Positions 2,353 to 9,237 of a stretch of DNA of 14,079 bases are shown one piece after another. The stretch's first letter is position 1. Each line of letters opens with the position of its first letter. Origin of the DNA: a virus (Duplodnaviria > Heunggongvirae > Uroviricota > Caudoviricetes); the IMG/VR virus record IMGVR_UViG_2728369593_000019. One strand, given 5' to 3'. The notes beneath the pieces are model-generated. The model did not search any database. It was not told where the DNA came from and saw nothing but the letters and a program-made list of their open reading frames with translations. The position numbers were made by a program, and so were the translations under genes.

Positions 2353-2581
2353 GAACACCTCCATTATTATTTCCTGTGGTTCGTTTATTCCATCTTTCGA
2401 GCGCTTCTTTTTCACTTCCACCATAGCCAGTTCGAGATTCGCATCCGTTGCATTTTGCCCGGTAATATCCTGAAATGACTCTCACCGTTACTGATGGACA
2501 ACCACAAAAAGGGCATGGTTTAACTTTTGTGTATCGCACTGTTTTTTCTCCTGTGGGCTTTGTGGCTGCGCTCATTTCCAT
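2345..2581 (-). CDS. Lar/RalR-family restriction-alleviation protein (zinc-ribbon-like)
   Basis: 78-aa ORF with PCPFCGCPS...CNGCESRTG...ALERWNKRT, the Cys-pair pattern I associate with Lar (Rac RalR). Located just upstream of exo. Start overlaps the 3' end of exo by 10 nt. Confidence 0.65.
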
Positions 2582-3252
2582 TGCTCCCCAAATACAAAAC
2601 CAATTTCAGCCAGTGCCTCGTCCATTTTTTCGATGAACTCCGGCACCATCTCGTCAAAACTCGCCATGTACTTTTCATCCCGATTAACCACGACATAATG
2701 CAGGCCTTCACGCTTCATGCGTGGGTCATAGTTGGCAAAATACCAGGCATCTTTTCGCGTCACCCACATGCTGTACTGCACCTGGGCCATGTAAGCCGAC
2801 TTTATGGCCTCGAAACCACCGAGCCGGAACTTCATGAAATCCCGGGAGGTAAACGGGCATTTCAGCTCAAGGCCGTTGCCGTCACTGCATAAACCATCGG
2901 GAGAGCAGGCGGTGCGCATACTTTCGTCGCGATAGATGATCGGGGATTCAGTAACATTCACGCCGGAAGTGAACTCAAACAGGGCTCTGGCGTCGTTCTC
3001 GTACTGTTTTCCCCAGGCCAGCGCCTTAGCGTTAACTTCCGGAGCCACACCGGTGCAAACCTCGGCAAGCAGGGTGTGGAAGTAGGACATTTTCATGTCA
3101 GGCCATTTCTTTCCGGAGCGGGGTTTTGCTATCACGTTGTGAACTTCTGAAGCTGTGATGACGCCGAGCCGTAATTTGTGCCACGCATCATCCCCCTGCA
3201 CGATAGCTCTCACGTCGATCCCGGTACGCTGCAGGATAATGTCCGATGTCAT
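2572..3252 (-). CDS. exo: Lambda-type 5'-3' exonuclease (Red alpha)
   Basis: 226 aa, same length as lambda Exo. Sequence [65 protein letters not shown]... matches lambda Exo nearly residue for residue from memory. Start overlaps the bet stop. Confidence 0.95.
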
Positions 3253-4034
3253 ATTGCCACCTTCTGCTCTGCGGCTTTCTGTTTCAGGAATCCAAGAGCT
3301 TTCACTGCTTCGACCTGTTTCAGTTCTGACAATGCACGAATGTCGCGGCGAAATATCTGGGAACAGAGCGGCAATAAGTCGTCATCCCATGTTTTATCCA
3401 GGGCGATCAGCAGAGTGTTAATCTCCTGCATGGTTTCATCGTTAACCGGAGTGATGTCGCGTTCCGGCTGATGTTCTGCAGTGCATGCGGTATTTTCGAC
3501 AATGCGCTCGGCTTCATCCTTGTCATAGATACCAGCAAATCCGAAGGCCAGACGGGCACACTGAATCATGGCTTTATGCCGTAACATCCGTTTGGGATGC
3601 GACTGCCACGGTCCGATGATTTCTTTGCCTTCTCGGGTTTTGAATGGTTCGCGGCGGCACTCATCCATCCACTCGGTAACGCAGATCGGATGATTACGGT
3701 CCTTGCGGTAAATCCGGCATGTACATGATTCATTGTCCTGCTCAAAGTCCATGCCATCAAACTGCTGGTTTTCATTTATGATGCGGGACCAGCCATCAAC
3801 GCCCACCACCGGAACAATGCCGTTCTGCTTATCAGGGAAGGCGTAAATCTCTTTCGTCCACGGATTAAGTCCGTACTGGTTGGCGACGATCAGCAGCGCG
3901 ATGAATTGCGCATCGCTGGCATTACCTTTAAATGCCGTCTGGCGAAGAGTGGCGATCAGTTCCTGCGGGTCGACAGAATCCATGCCGACGCGTTCAGCCA
4001 GCTTCCCGGCCAGTGTTGCAAGTGCTGTACTCAT
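3249..4034 (-). CDS. bet: Lambda-type single-strand annealing protein Beta (Red beta)
   Basis: 261 aa, same length as lambda Bet. [27 protein letters not shown]...[16 protein letters not shown] matches lambda Bet from memory with a few substitutions. Confidence 0.95.
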
Positions 4035-4039
4035 TCGTT

Positions 4040-4339
4040 TTATACCTCTGAATCAATATCAACCTGGTGACGAGCAATGGTTTCAACCATGTACCGGATG
4101 TGCTCAGCCACGCGTTCCTGAAATTCAACATCGTCATCAAATGCGCGACTGATTGCCTGTTTGCTGGCACCGTGGCGTTGCAAATGGTCGATGCAGAGCG
4201 ATTCAAACAGGTGCTGGGGCAGACCTTTTTCCAGATCGTCCGCCAGTTCCGTTTCTTTTTCTTCGCGAACGATCTTCTGGTAGTGGCGTGACCATGCCAA
4301 CTCTTCAATGCGATCAAAAATTGGGCATGTGCTCATCAT
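4040..4339 (-). CDS. gam: Gam, RecBCD inhibitor (short GamS-like form)
   Basis: 99 aa. ...[45 protein letters not shown]...[32 protein letters not shown] matches the C-terminal ~98 aa of lambda Gam from memory. Lies directly upstream of bet. Confidence 0.9.
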
Positions 4340-4622
4340 CCGTTACCCCAAAATTTTCAAGTTTGTTTGCGATCATCATTGCAATATCCGGAATTAATGG
4401 CGCTGAGGCTATACCTGCAGGATTCGCACATAAACCGTAAACCGCCGCAATCACCACTTGTCTTTTCCAGTCGAGTTTTTCTAATGATGAAGCTGCTGCT
4501 TCGCCAGTTTCATCACTGCAATCGCGATGCGGATCGCTGCCAGCATTTTCATTGTGCTGATGTTCAGCACCTTCCATTTCCTCCGGATCTTTTTCCTGAG
4601 CTTCATCCAGATTTTCTTTCAT
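4314..4622 (-). CDS. Hypothetical protein (102 aa), acidic N-terminus and hydrophobic middle segment; sits where lambda has kil/cIII
   Basis: ATG at 4622. 3' end overlaps the gam start by 26 nt and 5' end overlaps the upstream gene by 20 nt, suggesting a coupled operon. N-terminal third is Asp/Glu-rich; middle segment [30 protein letters not shown] is hydrophobic. No family recognised. Confidence 0.5.
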
Positions 4623-5139
4623 TAAAGGTTTCCTGATACGTTGTGTCGCCCATCACCGCGCCACAATCAGGGCAGTTGCCCCCACCGCTCTGACCGCAGG
4701 CGGCACAGACTTTTTCCGGTTCCTGTTGTGCTACTGGTTCAGGTTGTTTCGTTTCTGGCTCGTTTTGTTGCGTATTTGGGCTGTTTTGTTCCGCTTTCTG
4801 GTCGTTCTGTTCCGTTTCTTGCTGGTTCTGGTTCACAGAATCGCGGGTTTCAATCCCCTTCACCCATTTCGGATCATTCGGATCGCTAATCCCTTCAACA
4901 AATTCACCACGTGATGCAGCAAGCAACTTATCGGCGTCAGGCTGGCTGATATTAGCTGCCTGCATAATTTTGCTTACTTCGTCAGCGGTGACTTTAACTT
5001 GGTGAGCAGAACTTACCTGCGGCTGAGCATCCAGCGGCTGCGTGTCCTGATGATGTTCAGTTGCATCCGGTTCCACTGTTTCAGCCGTTGCCTGTTCATC
5101 TGCCATTGCGCAAGATGGTTGCGGTTTTTTCTTCATCAT
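4603..5139 (-). CDS. Hypothetical acidic low-complexity protein with C-terminal CxxC...CxxC zinc-ribbon-like motif (up to 178 aa)
   Basis: ORF on the early-operon strand. Gln/Glu/Asn/Pro-rich repetitive segment, then C-terminal [17 protein letters not shown]. Start is uncertain: ATG at 5139 overlaps the upstream 409-aa gene, ATG at 5106 does not; neither has a strong ribosome-binding site. Confidence 0.5.
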
Positions 5140-6947: not shown

Positions 6948-7169
6948 TTACCATGACTCCGCCTTTACAGGTAAACCATCACGACCGAGGAAGACTTTAA
7001 TCATGCAGTCAGAAATGCATGTTTTTGTAGTCAGGCTACGAATATAAAGTTTTCGCTTTTTAATATTGTTTGCCGAGGCGATATATGTCCGACCTTCATG
7101 AAGAACATAATCGCCAGGGGTCACACACTGACGTGGTATTTCATCAGTTCCGAAGTGATGAGCAATCAT
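6948..7169 (-). CDS. Small protein (73 aa), candidate Kil-family cell-division inhibitor (KilR-like), by position and length
   Basis: ATG at 7169 with a GGAGAT ribosome-binding site 4 nt upstream gives [14 protein letters not shown]..., 73 aa. It lies immediately downstream, on the same strand, of the DicF-like RNA, where Qin carries dicB and Rac carries kilR. Not similar to my memory of DicB. Confidence 0.55.
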
Positions 7170-7334
7170 AATTATCTCCATTTTTACAAATGAATTTTGT
7201 CGATGCGGTGCCTGGTGCCTCCAGGTGACGTTAACCAGTTAACAATTAACGCCGGATAATCCACCCATAACACTGATGATTTTAACTGTGCCGCGTGCGC
7301 TTAGCCGCATTCACCGCATCACAAAATTCACTTT

Positions 7335-7393
7335 AAAAAGGGGCGGCAGGGCAGCCACGGAGTAGAACTGATGCCGCTAAAGACTACACACAG
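7335..7393 (-). ncRNA. dicF: DicF-like small regulatory RNA (prophage sRNA that targets ftsZ mRNA in E. coli K-12)
   Basis: Minus strand reads ...TTTAGCGGCATCAGTTCTACTCCGTGGCTGCCCTGCCGCCCCTTTTT. This aligns with E. coli DicF as I recall it (TTTGGCGGTATCAGTTTTACTCCGTGACTGCTCTGCCGCCCTTTTT), including the 3' GC-rich terminator stem (GCGGCA with TGCCGC) and U-tail. The 5' end is approximate. Confidence 0.7.
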
Positions 7394-7569
7394 CAATGTC
7401 GTTATTTACAACCGGAGGCGCACTCCCACCATTTAAATTTAACAGACAAGACCGACTCTTTATGAATACCGGAAATGCGCCTTCGTGTTGTGCCCGGTTT
7501 TATTTCACCACCTCCGGGCTTTGGTGGTATCTTTACTGAAGTTCTCACACAACCAGTAAGGAAATGAAT

Positions 7570-7860
7570 ATGCCAACGTATCTCGCCAGAGTAGAACTAT
7601 ATAATGCTGAGCCAGAGGATTACGAAGGGCTTCATAAATATATGCTCTCACTAGGATTCAGGAGAACGATCCCCCATGGAGATGGTTCGTATAATCAACT
7701 CCCGGACGGAACTTATGTTTCCGAAAAGGGCGGTGATATTTATCAAATTCGCAGCCAGATATCTGACTATGCAGACCGACTATCCAGGTATCGCGCGTCT
7801 GTTTTTGTTTGCGAATTCAGTCAATGCGCATGGTATTTATACCCCGCCAAGACCCGGTGA
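7570..7860 (+). CDS. Lone plus-strand gene (96 aa), uncharacterised, convergent with the repressor-proximal early operon
   Basis: ORF track gives 7564..7860. The second ATG at 7570 has an AAGGA ribosome-binding site 7 nt upstream; the first ATG at 7564 is only 1 nt from it. Protein MPTYLARVELYNAEPEDYEGLHKYMLSLGFRRTI...: no signal peptide or transmembrane segment seen. Preceded by about 180 nt of non-coding sequence. Its 3' end overlaps the 3' end of the YdaG-like gene by 24 nt. Confidence 0.55.
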   Translation: MPTYLARVELYNAEPEDYEGLHKYMLSLGFRRTIPHGDGSYNQLPDGTYVSEKGGDIYQIRSQISDYADRLSRYRASVFVCEFSQCAWYLYPAKTR

Positions 7861-8040
7861 ATATCCTGCACGGCCTTCTGCTTTGTAGAAGGCTTCTTCG
7901 CTATCATAATCGCCAGATTCCAGTGCTTCTTTAGCCAGCCAGATGCGTGCCCCAGTGCCTGCATTTGGCTCCAGTTGCTGGAGGCGTTTTGCATCTTCCA
8001 GGAGTAGAGCGATAACGTGTTTTAATTCTGTCTCGTTCAT
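7837..8040 (-). CDS. Small protein (67 aa), YdaG/YdfB-like by position
   Basis: The track ORF starts at a GTG (8049). The first ATG at 8040 gives MNETELKHVIALLLEDAKRLQQLE... and overlaps the stop of the upstream YdaF-like gene. Second gene after the repressor on the leftward strand, as in Rac and Qin. Confidence 0.5.
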   Translation of the reverse strand: MNETELKHVIALLLEDAKRLQQLEPNAGTGARIWLAKEALESGDYDSEEAFYKAEGRAGYSPGLGGV

Positions 8041-8041
8041 T

Positions 8042-8197
8042 TTACTCACCTGAATGTCTTCCCAACCAACGACGTGCGCCAGCTTCGGTTTTAAACGTTT
8101 TGCTTTTGGTATACGTCATGGCGGTGAATGTGCCGTCCTGATTGGGAAACACGCCACATACCAGAGATTCGTTGTTGCCAAGATCGATAGTATCCAT
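8042..8197 (-). CDS. Small protein (51 aa), YdaF/YdfA-like (DUF1391-like)
   Basis: Internal ATG at 8197 with a GAGGT ribosome-binding site 7 nt upstream gives MDTIDLGNNESLVCGVFPNQDGTFTAMTYTKSKTFKTEAGARRWLGRHSGE, 51 aa. That is the length I recall for Rac YdaF and Qin YdfA, and it is the first gene leftward of the repressor. Confidence 0.6.
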   Translation of the reverse strand: MDTIDLGNNESLVCGVFPNQDGTFTAMTYTKSKTFKTEAGARRWLGRHSGE

Positions 8198-8507: not shown

Positions 8508-8897
8508 TTAGGAGGATTTTTTCTGTTGCCTGCTTCTTAGATATTTTTCCACATACTCATCAAGCTCTTGAAGACGGATTTCGAACAGATCAATCATGCG
8601 TGCTTGTTCCGATCCTGGGAGCTGATTAAACAGTTCTAGCATTTTTTTCTGGTTATCATTTAACCACGAGTAAGTGTTTTCCTGTTCACCGAACATTAAT
8701 TCTGCGGGGGAAATGCCTAGTACCTGGCCGAGGATGATCGCATCCTCAGCCCCCACACTCCTGGTGCCAGCTTCGTAGTTAGCAATACGAGAAGAACCTG
8801 ACCAACCACATAGTTTTGCCAGGTTTCCCATACTTAATCCTCGATTTAGGCGAGTGGCTTTTAGTCGCTCGCCTATTTGTTCTGCAATGGTTTTCAT
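8508..8897 (-). CDS. Prophage repressor, XRE-family helix-turn-helix, DicA/RacR type (no LexA-like S24 peptidase domain)
   Basis: ATG at 8897 with a GGAG ribosome-binding site gives about 129 aa: MKTIAEQIGERLKATRLNRGLSMGNLAKLCGWSGSSRIANYEAGTRSVGAEDAIILGQVLGISPAEL... (helix-turn-helix). C-terminal LELFNQLPGSEQARMIDLFEIRLQEL resembles DicA (LELFNALPESEQ...) as I recall it. Divergent from the cro-like gene. The track ORF extends to 9002 with no ribosome-binding site. Confidence 0.85.
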   Translation of the reverse strand: MKTIAEQIGERLKATRLNRGLSMGNLAKLCGWSGSSRIANYEAGTRSVGAEDAIILGQVLGISPAELMFGEQENTYSWLNDNQKKMLELFNQLPGSEQARMIDLFEIRLQELDEYVEKYLRSRQQKKSS

Positions 8898-8910
8898 AGC
8901 TCCGATTTTA

Positions 8911-8978
8911 TCACGATGTGTGAAATTAGCGGTACTCACGTATCTGTAGTTGATCTTGCTCACGAAATGTGAATAATA
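8911..8978. promoter_or_regulatory. Candidate right operator/promoter region: three TCAC-N5-GTGA-type sites at 25-bp spacing overlapping a rightward sigma70-like promoter
   Basis: TCAC-GATGT-GTGA at 8911-8923, TCAC-GTATC-TGTA at 8936-8948 (imperfect), TCAC-GAAAT-GTGA at 8961-8973. TTGATC at 8950-8955, 17-bp spacer, ATAATA at 8973-8978, oriented towards the cro-like gene. The third operator overlaps the spacer and -10. Confidence 0.55.
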
Positions 8979-8991
8979 GAAACAGGAGGTA

Positions 8992-9237
8992 ATGATGAAC
9001 AAAATTTCAACATATCGAAAACAGCTTGGGCTGTCTCAAAGACAACTTGCTGTTCAGTTAGGGTGGATACAAAGCCGACTGGCAAATTACGAAGCAAATT
9101 TTCGTACCCCTGGGCTAGAGGAGTGCAGAAAAATTGTTTCCACCCTTAATCGGCTTGGTGCTCATTGTGGACTTGACGATGTATTCCCCCCAGACGGTAA
9201 GCATAGCGAAAACAGCATAGGAGCGGTTGATTCATGA
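8992..9237 (+). CDS. Cro-like / YdaS-like helix-turn-helix regulator
   Basis: 81-aa ORF divergent from the repressor. KQLGLSQRQLAVQLGWIQSRLANYE is a helix-turn-helix. AGGAGG ribosome-binding site at 8984-8989; ATGs at 8992 and 8995, the second better spaced. Stop overlaps the next ATG (ATGA at 9234-9237). Confidence 0.75.
   Translation: MMNKISTYRKQLGLSQRQLAVQLGWIQSRLANYEANFRTPGLEECRKIVSTLNRLGAHCGLDDVFPPDGKHSENSIGAVDS

Follow-up and report, generated by a model that had tools for sequence, protein, structure and literature searches.

The sieB slot of one Rac-like prophage contains a lone antisense gene for a small protein with a predicted GhoS/Cas2-like fold

The window analysed here, a 14,079-nucleotide (nt) stretch of DNA from the IMG/VR virus record IMGVR_UViG_2728369593_000019, holds a Rac-like lambdoid prophage that lies beside yebY and the RyeA/SdsR small RNA (sRNA) pair. 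Its early-left operon is opposed by a single plus-strand gene (7570..7860) that encodes 96 amino acids (aa) followed by a TGA stop codon. We propose that this gene is a self-contained antisense moron in the slot held in other prophages by sieB, and that its product is an orphan protein of the GhoS/Cas2 fold, probably expressed in the lysogen and acting on RNA; we prefer this account tentatively, at somewhat less than even confidence. What is new is an unannotated member of a catalogued, uncharacterised family, not a new kind of system.

Every protein gene from int (734-1810) through the repressor gene (8508-9002) is on the minus strand except the 96-aa gene. The listing of open reading frames (ORFs) thus agrees with an earlier sequence-only reading of the window, which had described the gene as alone against the minus-strand early-left operon. 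The sole other plus-strand feature between int and the repressor gene is the RalA sRNA (2168-2346). The plus-strand ORF has its first ATG at 7564 (7564..7860, 98 aa) and a second at 7570, which gives the 96-aa protein. ATG 7570 is the conserved start; in the homologous locus L017, from a metagenome-assembled genome (MAG), the first ATG is out of frame. A Shine-Dalgarno (SD) sequence, AAGGA, is located at 7558..7562 on the plus strand, 7 nt 5′ of ATG 7570. The sequence CAAGGAAATGAA is kept in Salmonella and in L017, and start codon and SD are conserved. The ratio of nonsynonymous to synonymous substitution (dN/dS, Nei-Gojobori) is 0.32 against Salmonella and 0.13-0.15 against the more distant L017, while in comparison with Citrobacter synonymous sites are saturated and the protein is still 57% identical. 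Judged by these comparisons the ORF is a genuine gene under purifying selection, and the conservation of its reading frame in related prophages, on which the earlier reading had staked the gene, is borne out.

Among 5426 complete E. coli genomes the ORF is carried by 19, with identity of at least 99% throughout, and the flanking DNA matches 4623 genomes; 18 of the copies in complete genomes are intact and near-identical. The RefSeq annotation, produced by the Prokaryotic Genome Annotation Pipeline (PGAP), has no feature under the ORF in any of the 19 carriers, which include O55:H7 and O121 strains, and a conserved gene under purifying selection is therefore absent from the annotation of every complete RefSeq E. 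coli genome that carries it. This silence, together with the existence of frameshifted variants and of copies disrupted by insertion sequences (IS), would fit a non-functional, chance or decaying ORF antisense to the early-left transcript. Conservation effectively refutes that explanation, which we consider very improbable: selection on the frame is as described above, the start codon and SD are kept, 2255 homologous clusters have a like length, the fold prediction is confident, and no minus-strand ORF covers the region.

The sequence-only reading could assign the protein to no family, a statement that no longer holds. The protein matches phrog_8894 over its full length (E 3.8e-38, residues 3-96 against profile positions 1-93 of 94), as do YmfI of prophage e14 (K-12 b1143; 8.6e-40) and relatives from Pseudomonas, Klebsiella, Burkholderia and Ralstonia. 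BLASTP aligns it with e14 YmfI at 26% identity over 93 aa (E 1e-9). The two differ in clade: the 96-aa protein belongs with members of 95-96 aa that have a PHGDGS loop and His at position 22, whereas YmfI has 113 aa, a C-terminal extension and Glu at position 22. A profile of 42 family members matches 2255 clusters (50% identity) at E <= 1e-3 and 1121 at E <= 1e-10, nearly all of them stand-alone proteins of 92-100 aa. No match to a housekeeping or structural family, which the earlier reading had named as fatal to its case, was found for the 96-aa protein, and a search of the literature yielded no paper that addresses what YmfI or phrog_8894 does.

The family is linked to GhoS (YjdK; PF11080, formerly DUF2622; PDB 2LLZ) by sub-threshold matches in a consistent register and by bridging relatives above the Pfam threshold. 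Sixteen of the 42 members match PF11080 at E <= 1, all in one register, and its gathering score of 21 bits is exceeded by three relatives linked through the profile, P0130 (28.8), P0139 (24.8) and P0129 (22.2). Alignment of the family to GhoS with hhalign was weak (E 1e-3 to 2e-3, probability 14-23%) and fell in the same register as the Pfam matches; with a six-sequence profile against GhoS alone it was uninformative. NCBI names some family members GhoS or DUF2622. Arg28 of GhoS has been reported as the key catalytic residue (PMC4010927). The family residue that aligns with it, His22, adjoins an invariant Met and is His in 30, Glu in 11 and Arg in 1 of the 42 members, and the motif L-(R/H)-x-x-M at this place is common to GhoS and the family.

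The predicted fold of the 96-aa protein is beta-alpha-beta-beta-alpha-beta, a small, soluble, ferredoxin- or Cas2-like arrangement. A first AlphaFold2 model from six sequences (predicted local distance difference test score 76.9) gave generic ferredoxin-fold matches with GhoS at rank 15; it is superseded by a confident prediction from 42 sequences, in which GhoS is the nearest solved structure and is aligned over 89 residues, against 65-76 for the other folds. On these transitive profile matches and the modelled fold we conclude that the protein is a distant member of the GhoS/DUF2622 superfamily, within a phage-borne, YmfI-like branch. Its identity to GhoS is about 13%. The small endoribonucleases Cas2 and VapD are also among the closest known systems, but the protein has no match to their Pfam families and no CRISPR context. 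Cas2 has a conserved Asp at the end of beta-1, whereas the 96-aa protein's family has Glu, Arg or Thr at that position. Foldseek gave no match below E 1e-3 among the viral structures of BFVD, and searches of PDB sequences with the single protein or a shallow profile gave no useful match. The family domain was also seen fused behind a Ser/Thr kinase or an integrase (P0254, 580 aa; P0192, 499 aa). In the kinase case it opens with its own Met after a low-complexity linker, and both proteins look like read-through gene calls. A Ser/Thr kinase gene is also found near the Salmonella copy in locus L013.

The 96-aa gene departs from GhoS in its surroundings as well. Rather than belonging to an operon it stands alone and antisense in a prophage; there is no ghoT-type toxin gene nearby, its neighbours in all contexts being convergent phage genes; and GhoS proper occurs on E. 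coli and Shigella chromosomes only, whereas the family is phage-borne across Proteobacteria. A phmmer search for GhoT among all six-frame ORFs of 10 loci returned nothing below E 0.08 and nothing adjacent, and no small hydrophobic partner ORF was found near the gene. Because the toxin partner, the defining feature of type V toxin-antitoxin systems, is absent, we do not classify its product as a GhoS antitoxin. It could still be an orphan antitoxin of that style, cleaving the mRNA of a toxin encoded elsewhere, either the prophage's own early-left kilR/DicF transcript or that of a host GhoT/OrtT-type toxin, such that the lysogen would be shielded from leaky toxin or a toxin-based host defence disarmed. 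GhoS, the closest characterised relative, is such an antitoxin and is itself non-toxic (PMC4010927). The gene is also one or two genes from Kil/KilR in E. coli, Salmonella and the MAG, and beside DicF in E. coli, while a DicF/STnc100-like remnant is located just upstream of ymfI in e14. The link to kil is not general, however: the Citrobacter and Klebsiella copies are between Q and holin and the Burkholderia copy is between RusA and terminase. GhoT-like ORFs are missing from all ten loci, GhoT, like GhoS, is confined to E. coli and Shigella while the family reaches Pseudomonas, Ralstonia and Burkholderia, GhoS fails to neutralise the GhoT paralogue OrtT (PMC4344625), and the frequent disruption described below is unexpected of a protective antitoxin. 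We regard this explanation as quite improbable.

The position of the gene can be defined closely. In Rac of K-12, sieB lies on the plus strand between kilR/kilS and ydaF, and the DNA 5′ of it is identical, almost base for base, to window 7393-7522, the leader that lies here between DicF and the cargo gene. The equivalence with the sieB slot of Rac that the earlier reading had drawn is thereby established at the nucleotide level. Another strain has a closely similar leader in front of a different 59-aa ORF, and in e14 the 3′ part of the leader comes before ymfI; e14 also has the same leader hairpin plus a CTGGAGTTCTCACACA motif. Because a common leader precedes sieB, the 59-aa ORF, ymfI or the 96-aa gene, we regard the locus as one slot with swappable cargo. 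Presence and absence are as expected of a moron, with the gene in few genomes and sieB or the 59-aa ORF in the slot elsewhere. The near-identity to Rac reaches an inverted repeat, ACCACC...GGTGGT (7507..7528), and the sequences diverge just past it. The arms of this hairpin vary and yet still pair in Salmonella, L017 and Citrobacter. A role as an RNA element was rejected (folding energy z -0.77); since the folding is not significant, we read the repeat, which overlaps the candidate promoter described below, as part of that promoter and as the left recombination junction of the slot. On the other side, a blastn match of 89% to three Salmonella loci is confined to 7536-7885, and their flanks are otherwise different; this minimal common cassette (7536..7885) comprises the SD and the ORF together with 25 nt of 3′ flank, and its composition shows no anomaly. 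The cargo-exchange slot of Rac-like prophages is thus delimited to a few bases, which offers a handle for finding other lysogen-expressed genes.

SieB, the superinfection-exclusion protein of Rac, lambda and P22 (phrog_6399), shares with the 96-aa protein the slot, the orientation and, in Rac of K-12, the upstream DNA. The sieB gene is reportedly the classic case of a lysogen-expressed gene antisense to the early-left (PL) operon. The proteins themselves have no relationship in sequence or fold: SieB is a membrane protein of 162 aa and the 96-aa protein is predicted to be soluble, a hydropathy scan of the ORF having found no hydrophobic window, and Rac SieB matches phrog_6399 (5e-70) while the 96-aa protein matches phrog_8894 only. 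The earlier view that the protein is not SieB-like and lacks a membrane segment therefore stands. In arrangement the gene agrees with ymfI, which in e14 is likewise a lone plus-strand gene two genes from the repressor gene, with a 3′ convergent overlap with ymfJ and a DicF-like element upstream; the window gene is lone and antisense to the early-left operon, is convergent with a ymfJ-like N-terminus and has the common leader.

The gene may carry its own transcription signals. From DicF, upstream and divergent, to the start codon ATG 7570 there are 177 nt, close to the 180 nt of own upstream sequence counted previously. A candidate promoter on the plus strand (7504..7533) is predicted from TTCACC at 7504-7509, an 18-nt spacer and an extended -10 element, TGgTATCTT (TGGTATCTT, 7525-7533). 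Ten of 11 enterobacterial loci have an extended -10-like motif, TGnTAnnnT, 41-49 nt 5′ of the ATG, and the Citrobacter type is one of them despite its divergent sequence. The sequence-only reading had noted another candidate, TTAACA-N16-TATGAA at 7439-7466. That sequence is indeed present, but strain E9 and Salmonella have lost it in front of the gene, and since it is not retained whereas TGnTAnnnT is, it is probably not the relevant promoter. Twelve nt past the stop codon and inside the convergent ORF, a stem-loop with a 10-base-pair (bp) stem (7872..7894, plus strand) is followed by UCUUCGCU; its folding energy (dG) is -22 kcal/mol (z -4.06). In Salmonella the corresponding position is occupied by a hairpin built of other arms (z -4.10), after which comes UUUCUC. 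We infer from these sequences that the stem-loop is terminator-like for the plus-strand transcript and that the gene has a promoter and terminator of its own. No LexA box was found in the leader; the literature lists ymfI as having a potential SOS box. Upstream of the gene, two direct repeats TTCCACAG(A/T)C are present both in L017 (4920-4985) and in Pseudomonas phage Cruim01 (L002 3925-3990), and the E. coli leader contains a related CTCACACAACCAG; repeats of this type may be a conserved operator or a motif of the 5′ untranslated region.

In every context examined the family gene is convergent with its downstream neighbour and is usually alone on its strand, and antisense placement is a trait of the family in these contexts. 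It opposes an early-left operon in E. coli, in three Salmonella prophages with different repressors, in the MAG, in e14 and a Salmonella relative of it, in P. syringae prophages and in phage Cruim01, whose 3′ overlap is likewise 24 bp. The recurrence of homologues at this slot as lone antisense genes, which the earlier reading had proposed to look for, is thus found in the three Salmonella prophages, e14, the P. syringae prophages and Cruim01. Elsewhere the gene occupies the slot between Q and holin (Citrobacter, Klebsiella), lies between RusA and terminase (Burkholderia) or stands at a prophage end (Ralstonia); in locus L056, which encodes a protein above the Pfam threshold, it is again convergent with its neighbour. 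In L017 a second antisense plus-strand gene (4239-4782) encodes a 97-aa protein of phrog_31519 whose Cys pairs point to a possible zinc ribbon. This gene, too, is overlapped by a convergent ORF of its own, and it directly adjoins the GhoS-like unit, giving two antisense units in tandem. In two published e14 datasets, SOS induction raises ymfI about 4-fold (log2 1.8-2) and ymfJ, ymfL and ymfM 16-28-fold (log2 4-4.8); the weak response of ymfI relative to its neighbours fits separate regulation.

The convergent ORF of the window (7837..8049, minus strand) overlaps the 96-aa gene by exactly 24 bp, as the earlier reading had it. It is a chimera with a YmfJ-like N-terminus and a C-terminus like that of a Salmonella partner protein. 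Its residues 1-43, counted from the ATG at 8040, are homologous to e14 YmfJ (blastp, 81% over 42 aa), and its last 24 residues are 54% identical to the C-terminus of the 82-aa Salmonella partner. This similar C-terminal stretch includes the antisense of the 3′ end of the cassette. The ORF is matched over its full length by phrog_30817, and PGAP calls an overlapping pseudogene without C-terminus at 7915-8040. The convergent partner genes elsewhere, all on the minus strand of their loci, are L011 5268-5516 (Salmonella, 82 aa), L014 5285-5506 (Citrobacter, 73 aa) and L054 4282-4491 (Klebsiella, 69 aa). Their products are homologous over their full length (blastp E 6e-6 to 3e-13) and form the phrog_9419/phrog_26625 group, the Salmonella gene being in the early-left region and the other two in the Q-holin slot. 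Partner and GhoS-like gene diverge in parallel, with identities of 58/79/57% for the GhoS-like gene versus 36/47/32% for the partner. These comparisons suggest a mobile convergent two-gene module in the Salmonella, Citrobacter and Klebsiella lineages, of which the window retains only the tail of the partner. A tblastn search of the phage collection with the convergent partner proteins found no match. The idea that the partner is an acidic inhibitor acting by charge complementarity was rejected, the GhoS-like proteins being themselves mildly acidic.

In an alternative explanation the 96-aa protein is the effector half of a convergent toxin/immunity or self-immunity module. A harmful or abortive GhoS-like protein would be neutralised by a small partner co-transcribed with the lytic operon; in the window, replacement of the partner by the YmfJ chimera would have left a costly solo effector. 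Besides the full-length homology and parallel divergence of the partners, this explanation can point to 3′ overlaps of 4-63 bp that recur in E. coli, Salmonella, e14 and Pseudomonas, and to the fact that two substitutions turn GhoS into a toxin (PMC4010927). It can also point to the fate of the gene in IMG/VR. Among 23 loci, the 96-aa ORF is interrupted by a nonsense mutation, IS2, an IS630-like element and a deletion, and in two more loci an insertion separates the leader from the ORF, while no damage is seen in the neighbours DUF1391 (20/20 intact) and KilR (7/7 intact). Several independent events thus break the gene or part it from its leader; they comprise two IS2 insertions, the IS630-like element, a 2.1-kb insert, the nonsense mutation and the deletion; the loci are L019 (insert at window 7525), L022 (7550-7558), L036/L037 (7607-7611), L038 (7652), L027 and L039. 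Because the IMG/VR loci are not independent lineages, however, a cost to the carrier is only a lead, and cryptic prophages decay in any case. Moreover, the 18 intact copies in complete genomes persist without an intact partner, the relatives in Burkholderia and Ralstonia have no such partner, and the partners lack family annotation and show no detectable similarity across clades (YmfJ, the phrog_9419/26625 group and a 59-aa Pseudomonas protein). Longer phage proteins, too, contain the N-terminal domains of the partners, and the overlap could for that reason be a mere scar of insertion into a pre-existing gene. We consider the two-gene explanation unlikely.

We return to the preferred account of a self-contained unit. 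Its parts would be a short leader with an extended -10-type promoter, an SD sequence, the 96-aa ORF and a stem-loop after the stop codon, together opposing the early-left operon. The lysogen would most likely make the protein from the gene's own promoter, without dependence on the early-left promoter, and the protein would then act on RNA in trans, as a sequence-selective endoribonuclease like GhoS or as an RNA binder, to the benefit of the lysogen; transcripts of superinfecting phages and leaky toxic early transcripts are possible targets. Once the prophage is induced, early-left transcription converging on the gene through the 24-bp overlap would counteract its expression. Such a course would suit a role in the lysogen in defence, exclusion or toxicity that is silenced by convergent early transcription, as the sequence-only reading had supposed.

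Several findings weigh against this account. The protein has no match to PF11080 or to any other Pfam family, at E <= 0.1 or at E <= 1. Its score against NCBIfam NF051477, 'YmfI family phage protein', is 52.8 bits (E 4.2e-14, residues 5-92) against a cutoff of 140 bits; it is related to this equivalog group yet outside it. None of the families in PADLOC-DB v2 matched the protein or its four neighbours at E <= 0.1. The RNase activity of GhoS rests on the work of one laboratory. The candidate promoter is weak by consensus (8/12 plus TG) and was missed by a simple consensus scan, and the hairpin after the stop codon lacks a clean U-tract and drew no call in a strict terminator scan. Because the gene is rare and often disrupted, any benefit to the lysogen would be conditional. 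The ferredoxin-like fold is promiscuous, with ACT and metal-binding domains scoring nearly as high as GhoS, and no polar residue is invariant across the family, His22 being Glu in the YmfI clade and Glu9 being Arg or Thr elsewhere, which argues against one common catalytic site.

The lack of an invariant residue also favours a different explanation, in which the protein has no role on RNA and is a small, non-enzymatic binder on a common ferredoxin-like scaffold, for example one that inhibits or modulates a protein of the host or of a phage, or an ACT-like domain that binds a small ligand. Small protein inhibitors are numerous among phage morons, and the most conserved element of the enterobacterial clade is the loop or beta-hairpin PHGDGS (residues 35-40), which is typical of an interaction surface. 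Yet the links at the sequence level lead specifically to PF11080 and not to the ACT or HMA families, GhoS aligns over more residues than the other folds do, and the conserved basic and aromatic positions Arg7, His22, Arg/Lys32 and Tyr49 are compatible with nucleic-acid binding. A binding protein of this kind strikes us as possible but unlikely.

A broader conjecture, which we think rather unlikely, would reverse the relation between GhoS and the phage proteins. GhoS might be a domesticated offshoot of a very large phage-borne orphan family that temperate phages of Proteobacteria carry as lone antisense morons, single-gene exclusion or abortive effectors directed at RNA, in some lineages accompanied by a small convergent partner that is expressed in the lytic phase and lets the phage escape its own effector. 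If this were true, the family would represent a new, widespread class of prophage-encoded immunity, and type V toxin-antitoxin systems would have to be reinterpreted. More narrowly, a link now exists between the sole type V antitoxin to have been characterised and a family of over 2000 phage protein clusters, with no GhoT partner in the family loci examined, and an exclusion or abortive function, if proven, would make the gene a very small single-gene addition to the prophage defence repertoire.

The remaining features of the window place the gene in its prophage. At the left end (1-714), yebY is followed by the overlapping SraC/RyeA and SdsR/RyeB, and the integrase gene comes directly after; the prophage occupies the yebY-ryeAB site. 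Around the 96-aa gene the repressor-controlled early-left operon contains DUF1391, the ymfJ-like ORF, DicF and kilR. DicF, with its terminator, is located at 7341..7392 on the minus strand (Rfam RF00039, 53.8 bits against a gathering score of 48), and a terminator scan placed a terminator-like site at 7358-7343. The early-left transcript that includes DicF must run antisense through the plus-strand gene. Between DicF and kilR is an STnc100-like element (7162-7351, minus strand; 44.4 bits, just below the gathering score of 47), of which a weaker copy in e14 overlaps ymfH (L006 5193-5414); the element may be a conserved kil leader. Further left, a RalR/RalA type I toxin-antitoxin pair spans 2168-2581, with RalA (214.5 bits) on the plus strand, antisense to the ralR/DUF1187 genes. 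E. coli O55:H7 DEC5A has an immunity region 99.9% identical to the one here. The recombination modules differ, with a YqaJ-type exonuclease and RecT here (2572-4034) and RecE and RecT in DEC5A (L001 2919-7129), a difference that is a mosaic exchange.

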